The position numbers were made by a program, and so were the translations under genes. The notes beneath the pieces were generated by a model. That model did not search any database, was not told where the DNA came from, and saw nothing but the letters and a program-made list of their open reading frames with translations. Positions 34,072 through 42,323 of a stretch of DNA of 64,000 bases are shown here, one piece after another. The stretch lies in sequence record PQ758395; one strand, 5' to 3'. Position 1 is the first letter of the stretch. Each line of letters opens with the position of its first letter. Origin of the DNA: Escherichia phage phita32.

Positions 34072-34409
34072 GTTTGTGGAGAAATATAGTTAACTACGTG
34101 TGCGGCAATCCAACTCCTGAAGAGAAGGATGTTGTGATTCACGATTTTACTAAAAGATCTCGTGAAAAAGATCTACTGCTAACAAAGGTGACTGATAAAG
34201 ATCCTGCAGTAGGGGACTGGGCAGGTTTTGCGTTCACATCGGACAAATACACCTTTAACAAAGGTGACTATCTTGTTGTGGATTTTAACGAAGACATCGA
34301 GGGTGCTGAACCTTACTATCAGACCCTTATCGTTGCAGGGTGTGTTAATCTCTCCGCAGGTATGCACAGTTTGATTCTTTTTGAGCTTGACTCTGAAGAC
34401 CTCCAGTAG
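34068..34409 (+). CDS. Hypothetical protein (113 aa)
   Basis: ORF, 4-nt overlap. Confidence 0.35.
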   Translation: MSLWRNIVNYVCGNPTPEEKDVVIHDFTKRSREKDLLLTKVTDKDPAVGDWAGFAFTSDKYTFNKGDYLVVDFNEDIEGAEPYYQTLIVAGCVNLSAGMHSLILFELDSEDLQ

Positions 34410-34466
34410 TAAGATGTGAGTCTAAAGGGGAGGCACCCTCCCCAAAAACTAAGGAAGCACTAAACG

Positions 34467-34769
34467 ATGAAACGTTATAAACCATACACTTTTGAAATCG
34501 ATTTCGAACTTGACGATATGTTTACTGTGGAAGCTCAGGCAGTTGTCCAGTTGCCAGACCCGGAGTGCCGTGATTCTGATGTTGACTATTATGGATTTAG
34601 GCAGATCACTGATGTGCATGTTTACCACAACGGCGAAGAGATTGACTTCCACCAACTGCCAAACGCTGTGCGCCACTCAATTTACAAACGTGCAGCCCGT
34701 GAACTAGAGTCCTATCTGGATGCAGCGACGACAGCAGCTGCATTTGCTGAAGAAGTGGGAGGTTTCTGA
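34467..34769 (+). CDS. Hypothetical protein (100 aa)
   Basis: ORF with RBS-like AGGAAG. Confidence 0.35.
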   Translation: MKRYKPYTFEIDFELDDMFTVEAQAVVQLPDPECRDSDVDYYGFRQITDVHVYHNGEEIDFHQLPNAVRHSIYKRAARELESYLDAATTAAAFAEEVGGF

Positions 34770-35164
34770 TGATTACAGGTGTGAAGATTATCCAATACCA
34801 CCTAACCAAATTGGAAGATGCTGAAAAAGAGCTTGCAGAAGTTCTGAATAGTGGATATACTTTGTTATCATGCGCCTGCTCAGACACCTACGTTGTGTGG
34901 ACACTTACTAAGAAGGAAGAGCCAGCATGGATCTTAGTGCCAAACCCTAAGATTATTAATGAGGTGGATGACTACTCTCATGACGGCCTGTCGGAAGACT
35001 GGGAAGTATGGGAAGGTGGTGAAAACCCTGCACCAGGTAAGTGGGTAAAATACAAACTACGTAGCGGTGCACAGCACGCTGGATACTCTGATAACATGGA
35101 CTGGAGTCATTCTTCACCGGAATCATTGGTAAGTGCATATGATATCATAGCTTTTAAGGAATAA
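34769..35164 (+). CDS. Hypothetical protein (131 aa)
   Basis: ORF with overlapping stop/start. Confidence 0.35.
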   Translation: MITGVKIIQYHLTKLEDAEKELAEVLNSGYTLLSCACSDTYVVWTLTKKEEPAWILVPNPKIINEVDDYSHDGLSEDWEVWEGGENPAPGKWVKYKLRSGAQHAGYSDNMDWSHSSPESLVSAYDIIAFKE

Positions 35165-35176
35165 GGAGAAGGCGGT

Positions 35177-35659
35177 ATGTCAGATTTTATGTGGAAAGTA
35201 GGTTATGCCTCTCCTGAAATGTGCGAGGCTTGCTTTGTAAAAATAGGCCGCGAGGATATTGACAAAGTAATCTTTAAGTTTCGTGATGTATCTGTGATCG
35301 GCAACCGAGTGCTTAAGCACTTAAAGAATCTGAAGCTCACCAAAAAGAAGTTCTTCGGACTTTTCGAAGAGAAAGTTGATGCTTGGACCCATTGCATTCA
35401 GGAAGCTAAATCTCACTACAGTGCTATCGTTACCCCAGAACGGGTAGCCAAGATGGAAGGATTAATCAACAGTACAGAGTTTGAGTGCCTAAAGGCTGCT
35501 CTTAATAGTTATCCAAAGTGCCTCAAACACCTTGACAAGTATGTAGAAAAGGATGGGGAAATGTATCTCACCCTGGACGCATATTATGAGATGCAAGAAA
35601 TTTTAAATTTAGATTTGACATTGGTATCCACCGAGTATACAATAGGTATCCGGGTTTAA
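35177..35659 (+). CDS. Hypothetical protein (160 aa)
   Basis: AAGGAGAAGG RBS; terminator follows. Confidence 0.4.
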   Translation: MSDFMWKVGYASPEMCEACFVKIGREDIDKVIFKFRDVSVIGNRVLKHLKNLKLTKKKFFGLFEEKVDAWTHCIQEAKSHYSAIVTPERVAKMEGLINSTEFECLKAALNSYPKCLKHLDKYVEKDGEMYLTLDAYYEMQEILNLDLTLVSTEYTIGIRV

Positions 35660-35665
35660 CACTAG

Positions 35666-35693
35666 GCCCTGCCCGAAAGGGTGGGGCTTTTTG
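35666..35693 (+). terminator. Intrinsic terminator with GNRA loop (GCCCTGCCC-GAAA-GGGTGGGGC + T5)
   Basis: 9-bp stem (2 G-U pairs), GAAA loop, TTTTT; identical hairpin recurs at 47391. Confidence 0.6.
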
Positions 35694-35710
35694 CATTAGG
35701 AGACAGCAAA

Positions 35711-36475
35711 TTGAAATTTATCTACAAAGAACACTACCACAAAGGTGTTGTGTGGAGCCTATTTGACGGGTCTGGTGGTGCAGTCATTGACTGGGCAAAA
35801 GCTGGGTACCTGTGCCTGTGCTTTAATGCAGAAGGTGCTGATCACGGCAGTTATGCAGAGGTGATAACCGATCATCACAACATTCACTATGTGGATTATT
35901 GGATTGATCCATGGTTCCCTCAGGAAACTTTTTGCATGTATCCAGCTCCAGACTTTATTCTTGCATTTCCTCCGTGCACGCATTTAGCGGTATCAGGTGC
36001 TGCACATTTTAAGAAAAAACTGGCTAAGGACCCCATGATCCAAATTAATGCTGTAAAGGATGCTCGGGTTGCGGAAGAGCTGGGAGAGATTTACGATTGC
36101 CCGTGGCATGTAGAGAATCCTGTGGGTGTTATGTCCACACTGTGGCGTAAACCTGATTACCGTTTTCATCCTTCTGACTATGGTGGGTATTTACCGGAGG
36201 ATGATGTAAACCCTTGGTTTCCTGAATTTATAGCTCCACGTGATGCCTATCCAAAAATAACTTGCGGCTGGATAGGTAATGGATTTATAATCCCGCCCAC
36301 AAAACCTGTCCCGCAAATAGTTGACGCGGTTAGCGGGTATTCCATGCAACACGCCAAGCTGGGTGGAAAGAGTGCAAGAACGAAGATGATTCGAAGTCTC
36401 ACACCACGTGGCTGGGCAAAAGCCGTATTCTTAGCAAACGAGCCTGTAGTAAGGAGCAGAATTAATGGGAAGTAA
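35711..36475 (+). CDS. DNA (cytosine-5)-methyltransferase-like protein (about 254 aa)
   Basis: TTG start after AGGAGA RBS (the track GTG at 35681 lies inside the terminator hairpin). Motif I VWSLFDGSGG, motif IV AFPPCTHLAVSG (Pro-Cys), motif VI HVENPVG (ENV). Confidence 0.45.
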   Translation: MKFIYKEHYHKGVVWSLFDGSGGAVIDWAKAGYLCLCFNAEGADHGSYAEVITDHHNIHYVDYWIDPWFPQETFCMYPAPDFILAFPPCTHLAVSGAAHFKKKLAKDPMIQINAVKDARVAEELGEIYDCPWHVENPVGVMSTLWRKPDYRFHPSDYGGYLPEDDVNPWFPEFIAPRDAYPKITCGWIGNGFIIPPTKPVPQIVDAVSGYSMQHAKLGGKSARTKMIRSLTPRGWAKAVFLANEPVVRSRINGK

Positions 36476-38543
36476 ATTTATGGCATCTGCATACAACCGT
36501 TTCGGTGAGCCAAACCCGAAAGCAACTAAGTATAAAAGTGGGGGAAGTGTGAAACGAGACTATCGTGATGAAAAAGAAGTTGAAACTGTAGAGACTGTTT
36601 TAGAAAATACTAAAATTGTCCCTGTCCCACAACAAAATATCGGTCTGATGGCTGCACAATATTTTGGTGTGCGATCAGCATTGTCCCAAGAAGACGGTGT
36701 GACAGTCACTGCAACATATTTCCCATATTACGACCGCTACGGAAATCTGTCTGGTTTCAAAAAGCGTGACTGGACTATTCCTAAAGAGCAAAGGGGCCAT
36801 TTCTCCGTTGTTGGCATCGTAAAGGCCAACTCCCAGATGTTTGGTCAAAAGCTGTGTGCATCTTCCAACAACCGTAAGCAGATTAACGTTTGTGAGGGAG
36901 AAGGTGATGTTATTGCAGCATGGCAGGCTGCATATCAGATACAAGTAAAAGGGATTCTCACCAACGCTAAAGCCCCGGCAAAGGTGAAGCAGTGGGCTAA
37001 AGAGGTCCAGGACGGGATCGACGCAGTTATCAACGGTGGTGATCTGGCAGGAAAACCATGCCTACCTTTTGTTGGAATTAACTGTGGATGTGCAAACGCA
37101 GTAGATACTTTTGCAAACAATGAGAAGTTTATCCGTAGCTATGGAACAGTTGTGCTGGCAATGGATAATGATGCAGCTAACGAGGTAGAGAAGCAAAAAC
37201 ACGTCATTAAAGGTGTTGAGGCCACGCATAATATCGCAGCATTTTTGATGGCTGATAACGTTTACCACGTAGAATACCCTGGTGAAGTAAATGACCCTGA
37301 CGGTGTAAAAGATATCCGAGACATGCTGAAGGCTAAAAAGCTGGAAGATATTGTCAACATGTTCCGGCACCCTGTTAAATATGTGCCTGATGCTGTGTCG
37401 GATTTAGAAGACTTCTCTATCGAGTCTTTGCGGAAAAAGACTTCCAACGGGGTAGATATCAGCGCAGAGTTCCCAAAACTGCAAAAAATGCTAAAAGGCT
37501 TGCACAAAGGGACACTCGTAATGCTTACAGGCCCGTCAGGTGGCGGTAAAACAACTGTAGCTAAAAAACTGGAACACTGTATTGCAAGATACCTAATGGA
37601 CCCGACATGTCCGAAGGCCGATGACTACGAAGAGGATGATCGTCTATGCATGATCCATCTTGAGGAGGACCCAGAGGAAGCAATTAACTCCTTGTATGCA
37701 AACCAGTTAGGGTTTGATGTTAAAGAGTTTGTTGAAGATCCTAGCCAGTTTTTAACTGATCAAGAACACGCAGAGATTCACCAATCATGGGCAAAAGCTG
37801 GAAAAATCAAAGTGTTCAAACATTTCGGATCTATTCCGGTGGACGAGTTGATTACTAAGCTTAAGCAAATGGTTTGCCTGTACCATTGTCGTTATATTGT
37901 ACTGGATCACCTGTCCATGGTAATTTCAGGGCTTAATGTTAAGGATGAGCGAAAAGAACTGGACATGGCTATGACCCAACTGGCTGCGTTTTGTAAGCAG
38001 TTTAACGTGTTTATCTTGGTGATCGCTCACCTCAAGCGTATAGAGATTGTGCCTCCTAAGGACAAGGATGGTAACCCGTTACCTTTCTGGTATCCTGTGC
38101 GAAAAGAGAATTTGCGAGGATCGGCTGGGCTTGAACAGTTGAGTTGGGTAGTCATAGGTGTCGAGGCCGAAGAAATGGTGGATCGTTCTCGTGGACGTGT
38201 CCGTCTGGTAGGTCTTAAAAACCGTCCAGCAAAAACTTTAGGTATTGCTGACACTTTAGTTATGGACCCTCACACAGGCAAGTTCCATGATGCCAGCAAT
38301 TGGTACTGGGACAAAGAAATGCAGATGTTTACAGACGGAGAAGGTGGGGAGGTTGTTTGGAGACCTCAGGCTATGTTTGAGGATCAGGAGCATACAGTTG
38401 TAGAAACACCTATGGGTAAGGTTGTGGCTGATAAGGTTGTAACTCCTACTGTTAAGCCTGTTGACACGCAGGAAGACCTCCAGTACGATGATCCATCCTC
38501 TGACCCTGTCCCTGGTTTTGAGGACGATGAAACGCCTTTTTAA
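36465..38543 (+). CDS. Primase-helicase (T7 gp4-like)
   Basis: TOPRIM-like acidic cluster (VCEGEGDV, MDNDAAN) in the N-terminal half; Walker A LTGPSGGGKTT and helicase motifs in the C-terminal half; AAGGAG RBS. Confidence 0.6.
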   Translation: MGSKFMASAYNRFGEPNPKATKYKSGGSVKRDYRDEKEVETVETVLENTKIVPVPQQNIGLMAAQYFGVRSALSQEDGVTVTATYFPYYDRYGNLSGFKKRDWTIPKEQRGHFSVVGIVKANSQMFGQKLCASSNNRKQINVCEGEGDVIAAWQAAYQIQVKGILTNAKAPAKVKQWAKEVQDGIDAVINGGDLAGKPCLPFVGINCGCANAVDTFANNEKFIRSYGTVVLAMDNDAANEVEKQKHVIKGVEATHNIAAFLMADNVYHVEYPGEVNDPDGVKDIRDMLKAKKLEDIVNMFRHPVKYVPDAVSDLEDFSIESLRKKTSNGVDISAEFPKLQKMLKGLHKGTLVMLTGPSGGGKTTVAKKLEHCIARYLMDPTCPKADDYEEDDRLCMIHLEEDPEEAINSLYANQLGFDVKEFVEDPSQFLTDQEHAEIHQSWAKAGKIKVFKHFGSIPVDELITKLKQMVCLYHCRYIVLDHLSMVISGLNVKDERKELDMAMTQLAAFCKQFNVFILVIAHLKRIEIVPPKDKDGNPLPFWYPVRKENLRGSAGLEQLSWVVIGVEAEEMVDRSRGRVRLVGLKNRPAKTLGIADTLVMDPHTGKFHDASNWYWDKEMQMFTDGEGGEVVWRPQAMFEDQEHTVVETPMGKVVADKVVTPTVKPVDTQEDLQYDDPSSDPVPGFEDDETPF

Positions 38544-38601: not shown

Positions 38602-41031
38602 ATGAGTATGTGGTCTTTCGATCTGGAGGCCTCCGGGCTTTTGGAAGATCTAGATCTTTATTATCACTGCGGTCTGTTTAAAGAGCTGAATAAGAACCGT
38701 TTTATGCTGTTCCTTCCTCTAAATGACCGCACACACTACTCCAAGGAGGATATAGAGAAGGCCAAGAACTTTATTCTGGCAAAGAAAACTCTTTATAAAG
38801 ATTTTGAAGTCCGCATAGCAGATTTTTCGGAGTTGGAAGGTTGGCTTACAGGCAATTCCGACTGGTCACCAACAGCTTTGAACTGCCATAACTGCTACAG
38901 TTATGACTTTATGCTGATGGAGAGATTATCCGGTATTCATTTTGATATGTTCCGTGATCCTAAATGCATGGGGACTATCAACGACCACCAGGTTAATCTG
39001 TTTGATACGTTGGCGATGAGCCGAATCTTGTGGCCTGATCGCCCTTTACCAAAAGGTTGTCCGGACTCTGTATTCAACCCGGTTACTAAGAAAATGCAGC
39101 CTGTTGGTCCTCACGGCCTTATGGCATGGGGCTACGCCCTTGGTAACCAGAAAGTTCAAATTGATGACTGGCGCGATCTTCCGTTGTGGAAGTATGTGGA
39201 TCGTGTATTCGAGGACGTTATCATCCAGGAGCTGCTCTGGAAAGAGCTGGTAGCGGAATCAAAAGGTGTATTCTACGGCAAATCTGACATGCAGAACTTT
39301 ATGTATGATCCTGCCAAAGAGAAGCCGAAAGGGTTCAAGAAGATCACCTGGAAGAACGCATTACGTCGAGGCATGCTGCAGCACTTCCTGATGGAGCTGC
39401 AGGCCCGTCAGGGTGTATACTTCGACATAGATGGAGCTATTGCTTTACGTGACCGTTGCGATGCGTGGATGAAAGAAATCGCTGATCGTGTTGAACCACA
39501 ACTACCTTTAAAAGAGCTGTCAATGTCTCAGCGGCCCAAGTTCCCTGAAAAGCCGTTTAACCAAGACGGGACAATCTCTAATAATGGTTGGAAATGGTTA
39601 AAAGATAAGCTTGGCTATCCTGTAGACATGAGCGCTTTAGAGTTCAAAGCCCCGCCTAAGCGAGCATTTACCTCTACAGGGGATGTCAGCAAGATGGGGA
39701 TAAAATGGTGTGAAGAGATGGGCTGCAAAGACCCCGATAAGATGGCTGATTTCTTGAGAGGCTATATTAAGGGTACCTCCACACCACAACCTTTACCTAA
39801 AGAGCTAATGGATCAGGCAATAAGTGATCTGCAGCAGAAGCGAATGCCTGACTGCAAGATACCTATGAAAATCGGCAATCAGGACGACATCAAGCGATAC
39901 CTAATCAGTGCTGGTTGGCTCCCAACAATGTGGAGAACTAAAGATGTAACTAAAGACAGCAAGAAGAAAGCTTTACCTGATGCAGATGTTGATGCACGAG
40001 TATATGCATACATGGACGAGCTTTTAGAGTCAGAGTATTGTGACCTGATTATCAACTTCTGGAACAAAACTGATGCTAAGTTTCAGACAACCGTGCACAA
40101 GTTCCGAAGCTTTCCTAACTCCGAAAGGATTAAAAAGGAAGTGTTCGGGAAAATACGTAGAAAAGCCAGGGCACTTATTACTTCTCCGCAACTGAAAGAT
40201 ACGTTTGGACACCTATGCCCAAATCTTGAAAAATTGAACGGAGAGATGGCTAAAGATATCGTCTTGTGGTTATCATTGCGAAACCGCAGATCGGTCCTTG
40301 ATCCAATCAAGGAGGATAAGGTTGATACTGGTCTTCTTAATCACCCACGTTTGAAGATTGACCATAAGCTTCCTGCTAAAAGCTCTGGATTAACAAACAC
40401 TTCCAGACAGAAACACAGTATTTGTGCAAACATGCCTAAACCATCTCCTAAAGTGGTTATGGGTAAAGAGATGCGTAGTCTGTGGGGTGTTCCTCCAGGA
40501 TACTTTGAGATCGGTATTGACGGGTCCAACTTAGAGCAGCTTATCGGGGCTTGGGGTGCCTTTGAGTTCGACAACGGCTTGTATTATGATGTTGTAAGTA
40601 ACGGAGACGCACACCAAAACAATGCTGAGGCATATACAAAAGTAGCAGGCAGAGAGGTGTCCCGTAACGACGGTAAACCTATCACGTATGGGGTTATGTA
40701 CGGGGCACAAAAAGATAAAGTTGCAGATATGCTGGACATCTCTCCAGAGTTGGGACAAAGGGTAATCGATGCACTCTGGGATGCCAACCCAGGTCTTAAG
40801 GGGCGCAAAGAGGATCTGGAGAAATTCTGGGAAGCAACAGGTAAGAAGTTTATCTACTCTTTTGATGGTCATGCTATCTGGACCAGATCTAAACACTCTT
40901 TACTTAATGCATACCAACAAAATGGCGGTGCATCGTTGTGTGACTTAGTTGGAATACTCATGCACCACCAGATGGTGAAGCGTGGGTGGTACGATGAAGG
41001 TGTTCGTCGTATTATTTATTACCATAAATAA
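38602..41031 (+). CDS. DNA polymerase, family A (with 3'-5' exonuclease domain)
   Basis: N-terminal FDLEASGL (exo motif I); polymerase motif A region IGIDGSNLEQL; motif B region KPITYGVMYGAQ; AAGGAGA RBS. Confidence 0.65.
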   Translation: MSMWSFDLEASGLLEDLDLYYHCGLFKELNKNRFMLFLPLNDRTHYSKEDIEKAKNFILAKKTLYKDFEVRIADFSELEGWLTGNSDWSPTALNCHNCYSYDFMLMERLSGIHFDMFRDPKCMGTINDHQVNLFDTLAMSRILWPDRPLPKGCPDSVFNPVTKKMQPVGPHGLMAWGYALGNQKVQIDDWRDLPLWKYVDRVFEDVIIQELLWKELVAESKGVFYGKSDMQNFMYDPAKEKPKGFKKITWKNALRRGMLQHFLMELQARQGVYFDIDGAIALRDRCDAWMKEIADRVEPQLPLKELSMSQRPKFPEKPFNQDGTISNNGWKWLKDKLGYPVDMSALEFKAPPKRAFTSTGDVSKMGIKWCEEMGCKDPDKMADFLRGYIKGTSTPQPLPKELMDQAISDLQQKRMPDCKIPMKIGNQDDIKRYLISAGWLPTMWRTKDVTKDSKKKALPDADVDARVYAYMDELLESEYCDLIINFWNKTDAKFQTTVHKFRSFPNSERIKKEVFGKIRRKARALITSPQLKDTFGHLCPNLEKLNGEMAKDIVLWLSLRNRRSVLDPIKEDKVDTGLLNHPRLKIDHKLPAKSSGLTNTSRQKHSICANMPKPSPKVVMGKEMRSLWGVPPGYFEIGIDGSNLEQLIGAWGAFEFDNGLYYDVVSNGDAHQNNAEAYTKVAGREVSRNDGKPITYGVMYGAQKDKVADMLDISPELGQRVIDALWDANPGLKGRKEDLEKFWEATGKKFIYSFDGHAIWTRSKHSLLNAYQQNGGASLCDLVGILMHHQMVKRGWYDEGVRRIIYYHK

Positions 41032-41298
41032 CATTGTGGCTTCATAGAGTAATCTATGTCGAATAACCTCTTTAACTGCGGGAAGCCTAAACCTTATGGC
41101 AAGGTAATCCGCAACGAAGCGCTCAAAAGAGCGAACGCTCAGAGGCCATTCCGAAAGGAAGTAGACCAGCAAGTGCGGTCGAAATGGGAGGATTCCTGTG
41201 GTTGCTTATTATAGGAATATGAGATGGTCCGATCCTACGTGAAAACGTATGGCTATGCACGTAATGGTGCGGGGTAGCTTAACGACCTACCTGAACTA

Positions 41299-41655
41299 TT
41301 GGATGAGTACCAACTTCAAGTGCCTGACACACCGAAGTATAAGACTGTGTACACCTTCGACACAATTGAAGAACTGGAAGCATTTAAGGCAGAGCAGGAA
41401 GCCAAACTTCATGTGTTCGACGGTCATAAGTACAAAAAGGCACGCAAGGATGAGGACGGAAACGAAGTGGTTGACAGAGACGGAAACACGGTGTACGATC
41501 CTATCCTGAACGATGACGGAAAGCTTGAACTTATCTGGAGCCCTGTGGGTGAAATGGTGGTGCATTGCTTCTGGCAAGCTTCTAAAATGATGGGAGTCCC
41601 GTTCCAGATCACAGGTGAATACTTGTGTGGGGCTAATTGGGGTAGTTGCCATTGA
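41299..41655 (+). CDS. Hypothetical protein (118 aa)
   Basis: ORF (TTG start in track, no clear RBS); overlapped by alternative ORFs on both strands. Confidence 0.3.
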   Translation: MDEYQLQVPDTPKYKTVYTFDTIEELEAFKAEQEAKLHVFDGHKYKKARKDEDGNEVVDRDGNTVYDPILNDDGKLELIWSPVGEMVVHCFWQASKMMGVPFQITGEYLCGANWGSCH

Positions 41656-41666
41656 TCTGATAAGAG

Positions 41667-42323
41667 ATGTTTGCTATGGAAGAATGGAGAAAACTGGTTG
41701 GCAAGGAGGCCAACTATGAAGTTAGCAGCAAAGGAAGGATTAAAAGGCTGTCTTACCTGAGGAAGTACAGTAACCAAACAGGTAAAGTTACTTTCAAAGC
41801 TGTCCCTGACAGGATTTTAAAAGGTAGCGTAGACAGTAGCGGTTACATTCAAGTAAATGTGGATGGAAGATCGGAATTGCTTCACAGGTTAATTGCCGAG
41901 ACCTTTCTAGAGCCTCCTTCAAAAGAGCTTGTAGAGGAATGTAAGGCAGCAGGGCTGGACTATGTACCGATTAATCATAAAGACCATAACCGCCTAAACA
42001 ATGCTGCTGACAACCTTGAATGGGCCTCGCCTTCAAAAAATGCACAAGATGTGGACTACGATTACTGTAAAACAAGAGGTGAAAATTCATACTGTGCAAA
42101 ACTTAAAGAGCGAGATGTTGACGAAATATTAAAGCTTTCCAAAACAGGTATGTCGCAGCAAGCTATAGCAGATCTTTTCGGTGTTAATCAGATAACCATT
42201 TCCAATATCTTGACAGGAAGGAGTTGGGCATGGTACACTGGGATACCTAAAACCGCAAGGTGTAAAAACAAAAGGAAGAGATCCCCAAAAAGCATGTCCG
42301 AGCAAAATTTCTCGGTAAGCTGA
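41667..42323 (+). CDS. HNH homing endonuclease (NUMOD4 + HNH_3 + C-terminal HTH)
   Basis: EEWRKLVGKEANYEVSSKGRIKR (NUMOD4-like); INHKDHNRLNNAADNLEWASPSKN (HNH); C-terminal MSQQAIADLFGVNQITISNIL (HTH). Confidence 0.65.
   Translation: MFAMEEWRKLVGKEANYEVSSKGRIKRLSYLRKYSNQTGKVTFKAVPDRILKGSVDSSGYIQVNVDGRSELLHRLIAETFLEPPSKELVEECKAAGLDYVPINHKDHNRLNNAADNLEWASPSKNAQDVDYDYCKTRGENSYCAKLKERDVDEILKLSKTGMSQQAIADLFGVNQITISNILTGRSWAWYTGIPKTARCKNKRKRSPKSMSEQNFSVS

Follow-up and report, generated by a model that had tools for sequence, protein, structure and literature searches.

The closest experimentally described relative of the gene considered here is the dcm-like gene of phage K42. The gene in question lies at positions 35711–36475 (plus strand) of a 64,000-nucleotide stretch of Escherichia phage phita32 (sequence record PQ758395), the whole of which is referred to below as the window. 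Mutants of K42 that escape retron Ec86 all carried changes in the dcm-like gene or in its ribosome-binding site (RBS), and K42 Dcm expressed alone in E. coli was toxic together with Ec86 and raised 5-methylcytosine (5mC) in multicopy single-stranded DNA (msDNA), as measured by mass spectrometry coupled to liquid chromatography (LC-MS) (bioRxiv 10.1101/2023.08.16.553469). A C82A/E128A/K175A/K176A variant, in which the four mutations were tested together only, was inactive, and K175 and K176 were assigned to substrate binding by superposition on DNMT3A (bioRxiv 10.1101/2023.08.16.553469). Such a Dcm is encoded by 34 of 35 Ec86-sensitive phages, which belong to Drexlerviridae, Siphoviridae and Demerecviridae, with no Vequintavirinae mentioned (bioRxiv 10.1101/2023.08.16.553469). 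We compared the phita32 protein with the Dcm of BASEL phage KarlJaspers (Bas06), the counterpart of the gene of the near-identical, experimentally studied phage K42; the two proteins share 54% identity over 235 amino acids (E = 1e-87), the KarlJaspers gene being 711 bp long. The K42 retron study was reportedly published later in Cell Rep 2024;43:114857.

A second informative relative is gp74 of Klebsiella phage KP36 (NC_029099, 47552–48244, minus strand), a family member with 48% identity to the phita32 protein (E = 8e-66) in which motif IV reads FPSC, not FPPC. KP36 DNA, with 155 CCWGG sites, is fully resistant to EcoRII; the 2013 paper reported no cytosine methyltransferase and ascribed the effect to host Dcm (PMC3620542). 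KP36 was therefore described without a cytosine methyltransferase despite gp74, an example of how older phage papers overlooked this family, and its EcoRII resistance is consistent with, though short of proof for, CCWGG methylation by a compact Dcm-like enzyme. The 'Dcm' of phage KP27, whose DNA is also EcoRII-resistant, was rejected as evidence on the family, being a classical 303-amino-acid enzyme.

We propose, with a probability of roughly 0.8, that the phita32 gene encodes an active stand-alone (orphan) S-adenosylmethionine (SAM)-dependent DNA cytosine-C5 methyltransferase, a member of PHROG 757 (the compact 'Dcm-like' family of phages), and that it methylates phage DNA. That the protein is a DNA C5-methyltransferase making 5mC appears highly likely; 5mC formation was demonstrated for the K42 homologue alone and would extend to the phita32 enzyme by analogy. 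Gene and family are already known, with annotations in near-identical genomes and one characterised member, and the gene is ordinary save for its unusually small size.

Family membership, fold and conserved motifs

The phita32 protein matches PHROG 757 ('DNA methyltransferase') with E = 2e-86, residues 2–251 aligning to profile positions 5–226 of 247. An AlphaFold2 model built from a 30-sequence alignment (pLDDT, the predicted local distance difference test score, 89.7; pTM, the predicted template modelling score, 0.89) has the C5-methyltransferase fold, that of a Rossmann-like catalytic domain whose catalytic loop follows strand 4. When the model was compared with the PDB by Foldseek, the best 50 of 60 matches (E <= 1e-3) were all DNMT3A, DNMT3B or DNMT3C except the prophage CP-933R methyltransferase 3g7u (best E = 2e-6, TM 0.55). 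Sequence and profile searches of the PDB gave near-significant matches to M.HaeIII and DNMT3B only, restricted to motifs I–IV (E = 0.017–0.3). With hhalign, the family profile aligned to DNMT3A and M.HhaI with its motif I matched to theirs, its FPPC to the catalytic PC and its ENP to ENV, in alignments that stop at motifs I–IV or I–VI; the two reference sequences were verified residue for residue against PDB chains. The coding sequence and its motifs are as follows.

35711–36475, plus strand: coding sequence of the predicted compact Dcm-like DNA cytosine-C5 methyltransferase; TTG start, 254 amino acids
35759–35779, plus strand: motif I LFDGSGG (residues 17–23), putative SAM-binding loop, which follows strand 1; alignable with the motif I sequences of M.HaeIII, DNMT3A/3B and M.HhaI
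35966–35977, plus strand: motif IV FPPC (residues 86–89); C89 is the predicted catalytic nucleophile; aligns to the PC of DNMT3A and M.HhaI
36113–36124, plus strand: motif VI ENPV (residues 135–138); aligns to the ENV of M.HhaI
36248–36271, plus strand: YPKITCGW (residues 180–187), motif VIII-equivalent strand; K182 corresponds to K175 of K42 Dcm
36287–36361, plus strand: variable loop IIPPTKPVPQIVDAVSGYSMQHAKL (residues 193–217), candidate minimal target-recognition element
36362–36430, plus strand: conserved C-terminal block GGKSARTKMIRSLTPRGWAKAVF (residues 218–240), almost without variation in the family

Motifs I, IV and VI thus stand in the canonical order, as the preliminary description of this locus, made from the sequence alone, had stated; the literal ENV that it gave for motif VI is absent, and the protein reads ENPV. 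An alignment of 51 diverse members shows no variation at C89, E135, P137, P154, Y180, W187 or P195 and a conservation of 90% or more at K182 and T184. The K42 residues C82, E128, K175 and K176 correspond, with an offset of 7, to C89, E135, K182 and I183.

The protein might instead be a Dnmt2-type RNA (tRNA) cytosine-C5 methyltransferase, or a DNA-binding protein for which catalysis is irrelevant, and we consider both exceedingly improbable: DNA methyltransferases outscore Dnmt2, msDNA is a substrate of the homologue, neither the catalytic Cys nor the catalytic Glu varies, one family member is fused to a Dam-class DNA methyltransferase, and family genes lie in modules of DNA replication and recombination.

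The family is large. We found 3,556 homologues, and an exhaustive profile search yielded 2,076 representatives after clustering at 50% identity, most full-length members among the 150 listed being about 210–260 amino acids long; 1,505 phage records contain the family. Fusions are rare, with one member joined to a D12-class N6-adenine DNA methyltransferase and one to an HNH domain. Family contexts include lambdoid nin regions (with NinG, RusA and a second DNA methyltransferase), siphovirus helicase modules and rV5-like replisome operons. In 77 IMG/VR loci, 39 different neighbour pairs were seen, no neighbour cluster occurred in more than 27 loci, and there was no universal partner. Because no neighbour is conserved across these loci and K42 Dcm is active when expressed alone, we regard the gene as a stand-alone unit.

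Following the strand KxTxxWxGxGF comes the sole hypervariable segment of the family, usually 21 residues and 25 here, which also has the lowest pLDDT of the model (79–87 in residues 193–217). Recurrent loop types include [GYF]SxQ[HY]xKL, seen in this phage among others, DNPGWxK[LT], seen in K42, T1-like phages and lambdoid prophages, and FWGW/FFWAW, seen in KP36 among others; there are more. On the C-terminal side of the loop lies the nearly invariant GGKSxRTKxIRSLTPRGFAxAVF, then a C-terminal helix. A sizeable variable target-recognition domain (TRD) between motifs VIII and IX was not found: K182 and R228 are about 45 residues apart, and only some 21–25 of these vary across the family, which bears out the earlier remark that the protein leaves little room for a TRD. 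The stretch 154–192 is loop-rich in the model, confidently predicted (pLDDT 94–98) and highly conserved; together with the loop at 193–217, of about 25 residues, it may replace the large TRD of classical enzymes. A link between loop type and Ec86-sensitive phages was also sought and failed, since the supposed T5-like phage was E. coli phage Av-05, in which a primase/helicase adjoins the methyltransferase as it does here.

The C-terminal block resembles motif IX (RxLTPR) and/or motif X of DNMT3 (GRSWSVPV). Put more narrowly, the likeness of the single conserved block IRSLTPRGWAKAVF is to the start of motif IX and to DNMT3 motif X, and no profile or hhalign alignment extended far enough to cover this block. 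No GN-type motif X is recognisable in the protein. This absence bears on a reading in which the enzyme transfers a non-methyl group, for example carboxymethyl from host carboxy-S-adenosylmethionine (Cx-SAM) in the manner of CmoX, and so seeds cytosine hypermodification. E. coli makes Cx-SAM, and the phita32 protein has a conserved Arg233 that opens the C-terminal helix, a candidate equivalent of the CmoX arginine. CmoX is defined by an Arg in place of the canonical motif X Asn, which is N304 in M.HhaI (PMC12783734), and no counterpart of that Asn is identifiable here. Against this, the K42 homologue gave 5mC by LC-MS, motif IV is FPPC and not the CmoX-defining SPPC (PMC12783734), and there was no sequence-level match to the CmoX structure 8yf3 at E <= 10. 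No CmoA, ligase or ParB-like partner recurs in the 77 family loci, and no CmoA or ligase gene lies among the window neighbours at 32.7–41 kb. DNMT3A too has an Arg in its C-terminal GRSWSV block (sequence verified). We take this Arg to be equivalent to the motif X Asn of M.HhaI, and DNMT3A uses SAM. A CmoX-like activity is hence very hard to credit. The earlier suggestion that the fold had been recruited for a different base modification finds no support, given the 5mC made by K42 Dcm and the lack of a modification-pathway partner conserved beside family members.

Proposed catalysis and candidate target sites

We infer the target sequence, timing and biological role of the enzyme. On the pattern of the family, the target cytosine would be flipped out, Cys89 of FPPC would attack C6, Glu135 of ENP would protonate N3, and Lys182 with neighbouring residues would hold the base, the methyl group coming from SAM bound by the LFDGSGG loop. 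Newly made phage DNA would be methylated, the inner C of CCWGG being the likeliest position in view of what is assumed for homologues, and on this analogy we lean slightly towards CCWGG as the site. Methylation there would make the phage independent of host dcm status and resistant to EcoRII-type enzymes, at the cost of carrying an enzyme that retron Ec86-type systems can sense. The window contains 134 CCWGG sites in 64 kb, a ratio of 1.6 to the number expected from base composition and of 0.86 to that expected from a maximal-order Markov model; the site is not avoided, and the counts are uninformative about specificity.

Several observations weigh against an active methyltransferase acting at CCWGG. 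The protein itself gave no match to Pfam PF00145 at E <= 1 and no methyltransferase match in NCBIfam. Among its relatives, 18 of 30 match PF00145 at E <= 1 and three of ten (P0055, P0071 and P0077; 24.7–28.5 bits) pass the gathering score of 22 bits, these matches covering only profile positions 4–94 of 324, the N-terminal third. The preliminary description had treated motif matches unsupported by profile searches as fatal to its claim; here PF00145 and NCBIfam fail for the protein, whereas PHROG 757, the relatives and the fold support the motifs, so that the objection holds only superficially and the claim of a compact C5-cytosine-methyltransferase homologue is borne out. This clade has Ile in place of the second Lys of the K42 'KK' pair (YPKIT, with YPKLT in relatives), and we found no methylation data for any Vequintavirus in the literature. 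The variable loop is of the GYSMQH type here, DNPGW in K42 and FFWAW in KP36, and CCWGG may not transfer to this phage because the loop type differs. The K-12 strain MG1655 is dcm+. The K42 experiments were made in this strain, where msDNA 5mC was low without the phage enzyme (bioRxiv 10.1101/2023.08.16.553469), from which it follows that the phage enzyme does something that host Dcm does not. CCWGG was itself assumed from E. coli Dcm in the K42 study, with mutagenesis of the msDNA site as its sole support (bioRxiv 10.1101/2023.08.16.553469), and the EcoRII resistance of KP36 is confounded by the Dcm of its Klebsiella host (PMC3620542). Finally, Vequintavirinae are exceptionally susceptible to restriction–modification (RM) systems (PMC8594841), so any protection by methylation must be narrow.

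An active DNA C5-methyltransferase might instead have a target other than CCWGG: it could recognise another short motif, be relaxed in specificity or prefer single-stranded or replication-fork DNA. We judge this unlikely, though it deserves serious weight. In its favour, the loop at 193–217 is the sole hypervariable part of the protein and differs among this phage, K42/KarlJaspers and KP36, CCWGG has not been mapped directly for any family member, on msDNA the Dcm of a K-12 host did not stand in for the phage enzyme, and the gene lies within and overlaps a replisome operon. Conversely, residues 154–192 and 218–240, which are putatively DNA-facing, are nearly invariant across loop types, pointing to one shared binding mode, and CCWGG-type results exist for members of two different loop types. 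For a relaxed target there are two further difficulties. Extensive 5mC in R-C contexts makes DNA a substrate for McrBC in K-12 hosts, since McrBC needs R-5mC, while C-5mC-WGG escapes; broad methylation would expose the phage accordingly. It would also be expected to blunt the strong RM sensitivity of Vequintavirinae (PMC8594841). The RM susceptibility and the McrBC exposure together make broad-specificity protection improbable, and the 'broad-specificity protective methylase' first suggested for this gene is unsupported. CCWGG methylation by an active C5-methyltransferase is plausible, and we favour it by a slight margin.

The gene itself is correctly recognisable and already annotated as an orphan methyltransferase, and carries little wider weight. 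The compact Dcm-like family, in turn, is very common, biochemically almost unstudied and a known trigger of retron Ec86, and for this last reason carriage of an intact copy would predict phage sensitivity to Ec86. How a C5-methyltransferase of 226–254 amino acids recognises DNA without a normal TRD or motif X is a modest, specialist structural question, and such a compact enzyme could serve as a scaffold for engineering. The attribution of CCWGG methylation to the host in older phage work may need revisiting.

Gene start, leader and genomic context

Read directly in the sequence, the gene runs from a TTG at 35711–35713 to a TAA at 36473–36475 (254 codons) and is preceded by the following element.

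35698–35703, plus strand: Shine–Dalgarno sequence AGGAGA, with a 7-nt spacer (CAGCAAA) to the TTG; labelled RBS in the Murica annotation, and AGGAGG in the relative L007

The TTG is well supported as the true start. The earliest in-frame ATG is codon 76, on the 3' side of motif I, so that an ATG start is impossible for a functional enzyme. By eye, the other in-frame candidates are a GTG at 35681, within the leader hairpin described below, and a GTG at 35750 (codon 14) with a weak AAGG upstream. The annotations of Murica and DrSchubert, by independent annotators, chose the same TTG, and the close relative L007 has a GTG at exactly this position; in a clade at 79% identity, the homologous N-terminus also begins with GTG. 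Codons 2–13 differ from those of L007 by three synonymous and no non-synonymous changes, from which we conclude that the stretch is translated. Across the wider group the start is TTG or GTG in this clade, GTG with no hairpin in clade C, and ATG with a shorter N-terminus in clade B. Over the gene as a whole, the ratios of synonymous to non-synonymous codon differences within the genus are 42:5, 23:5 and 46:6. The preliminary description was thus right about an open reading frame (ORF) of about 254 amino acids resembling a C5-methyltransferase and starting at a TTG 7 nt past AGGAGA; its start coordinate, 35666, falls in the terminator, and the gene begins at 35711.

Three further features frame the gene.

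35615–35643, plus strand: sigma-70 promoter-like site, TTGACA–17 nt–TACAAT, with 11 of 12 consensus matches; lies in the 3' end of the upstream ORF 35177–35659
35664–35692, plus strand: intrinsic-terminator-like hairpin and T-run; stem AGGCCCTGCCC-GAAA-GGGTGGGGCTT at 35664–35689, T-run to 35692
36465–38543, plus strand: DNA primase/helicase gene, starting with an ATG and overlapping the last 11 nt of the methyltransferase gene; same arrangement in Murica, DrSchubert and L004

The promoter-like site ends about 20 nt on the 5' side of the hairpin. In clade B (79% amino acid identity) both of its hexamers are kept (TTGACA, with TATGAT or TACAAT) while neighbouring third-codon positions vary. The hairpin has 11 pairs and a GAAA loop, with a minimum free energy of -22.8 kcal/mol (z = -2.96 against shuffles); the Murica annotation labels it a terminator, and clade B conserves it with a change from G.U to G-C in the stem. 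An Rfam scan of positions 35000–37000 gave no match for the leader hairpin. A recurring 'promoter plus stem-loop' cassette was considered and rejected, because, of the 57 strong promoter-like sites in the window, the one at 35615–35643 alone has a hairpin and T-run behind it. These strong sites are skewed by strand, with 40 on the plus and 17 on the minus strand.

Transcription would probably start from the promoter-like site at 35615–35643 and/or arise by read-through of the hairpin. A transcript from the former would have its 5' end near 35650 and carry the hairpin in its leader, where it may act in transcription attenuation, stabilise the 5' end or simply terminate upstream transcription. 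The gene would be transcribed with the replication genes for primase/helicase and DNA polymerase, and its overlap with the primase/helicase gene makes co-transcription and translational coupling of the two possible. Translation from the TTG would proceed at a modest rate. The non-ATG start behind a terminator-like hairpin, noted earlier, was confirmed, with the hairpin at 35664–35692 and the TTG at 35711. The low or regulated expression deduced from it is plausible, but a position behind a terminator does not by itself amount to silence, given the near-consensus promoter-like site upstream and the primase/helicase overlap. Lower expression of such a Dcm-like enzyme can be advantageous to a phage, and the weak TTG may, by analogy, reflect the same trade-off.

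These elements can be combined in a conjecture that we hold as doubtful. The family, at about 230–254 amino acids, might represent the smallest natural architecture of a sequence-specific DNA C5-methyltransferase, in which a loop of about 20 residues reads the target in place of a TRD; the rV5-like clade, with its own loop type and its place in a replisome operon, might prefer a target other than CCWGG, such as a shorter motif, fork or single-stranded DNA; and the weak TTG with the leader hairpin might keep the enzyme below detection by methylation-sensing defences such as retron Ec86.

By sequence, the phage of the window is a Vequintavirus, an rV5-like E. coli myophage. The region is 97–98.7% identical to that of more than 100 Vequintavirus E. 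coli myophages, for example naswa, Murica and DrSchubert. More than 100 GenBank genomes carry the same coding sequence, under the labels 'putative site specific DNA methylase', 'DNA methyltransferase' or 'Dcm-like C5 cytosine methyltransferase'. It is intact in about 116 Vequintavirus records at 95–99% amino acid identity, and the compact C5-methyltransferase is a core gene found throughout the genus. The gene order is a Dda/Pif1-like helicase, four small ORFs of unknown function, the methyltransferase, the primase/helicase and a family-A DNA polymerase.

At 34409–34467, by comparison, a 1,326-nt N6-adenine methyltransferase gene that most relatives have (gp070 of Murica, bas50_0071 of DrSchubert) is cleanly absent, and about 28 of the 116 Vequintavirus records share the contiguous junction; the N6-adenine enzyme is therefore accessory, while the C5-methyltransferase is genus-wide. 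The adjoining ORF at 34467–34769 (plus strand, 100 amino acids), of unknown function, belongs to phrog_4240 and weakly matches the C-terminal part of the phrog_1573 profile 'DNA methyltransferase' (6.3e-5). As this ORF lies directly 3' of the N6-adenine methyltransferase gene in relatives, the phrog_1573 label is possibly an annotation carry-over.

The DNA polymerase gene (38602–41655) is split into ORFs at 38602–41031 (809 amino acids) and 41299–41655 (118 amino acids) by a 276-nt insertion relative to Murica. The insertion, at 41016–41301, contains a match to the group I intron model RF00028 at 41016–41251 on the plus strand (63.1 bits, above the gathering score of 50; E = 3.5e-15). Another insertion, also by comparison with Murica, lies at 41631–42320 just 3' of the polymerase gene and is associated with an ORF at 41667–42323 (plus strand, 218 amino acids), absent from Murica, that is a homing endonuclease by its NUMOD4 (1.2e-8) and HNH_3 (1.3e-6) domains and is probably linked to the nearby intron. 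Sixteen unannotated GenBank records labelled 'Campylobacter phage' (among MG065635–MG065669, host C. jejuni) share about 98% identity with this region, probably because of wrong labels or contamination of the assemblies.

Comparison with known systems

The nearest counterpart, the Dcm of K42/KarlJaspers, belongs to the same compact family and size class (236 amino acids, against 254 here) and shares with the phita32 protein the motifs FDGSG, FPPC, ENP and YxKxT...W as well as the block GGKSxRTKMIRSLTPRG. It comes from a T1-like siphovirus of the Drexlerviridae, whereas phita32 is an rV5-like myovirus. Its variable loop is of the DNPGW type where the phita32 loop is GYSMQH, and its K176 is Ile183 here; the phita32 protein differs further in an N-terminal extension of about 10 amino acids, a TTG start and a replisome-operon context.

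The catalytic domains of DNMT3A and DNMT3B (for example 5yx2 and 6u8p) resemble the phage protein in being small (about 285 amino acids) with a short TRD, and their motifs I and IV align with it at the profile level, with an identity of only 12–16%. On the DNMT3 side, motif VI reads ENV, motif VIII is of the RxR type and motifs IX and X are complete; these enzymes act on CpG as a DNMT3L-assisted oligomer. CmoX of Synechococcus phage S-B43 (8yf3) has 333 amino acids in the crystal, an SPPC motif and a Cx-SAM-binding R350, and usually adjoins CmoA and ligase genes (PMC12783734); none of these differing features was found in the phita32 protein or beside its gene.

Classical C5-methyltransferases of PF00145, including E. 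coli Dcm and M.EcoRII (CCWGG), M.HhaI and M.HaeIII, have motifs I, IV and VI in the same order and presumably the same product, 5mC, and in the case of Dcm perhaps the same site. The phage protein is about 70–80 residues shorter than M.HhaI (327 amino acids) and M.HaeIII (chains of 324–331 amino acids) and, unlike these enzymes, has neither a large TRD nor a recognisable GN motif X and fails to match PF00145.

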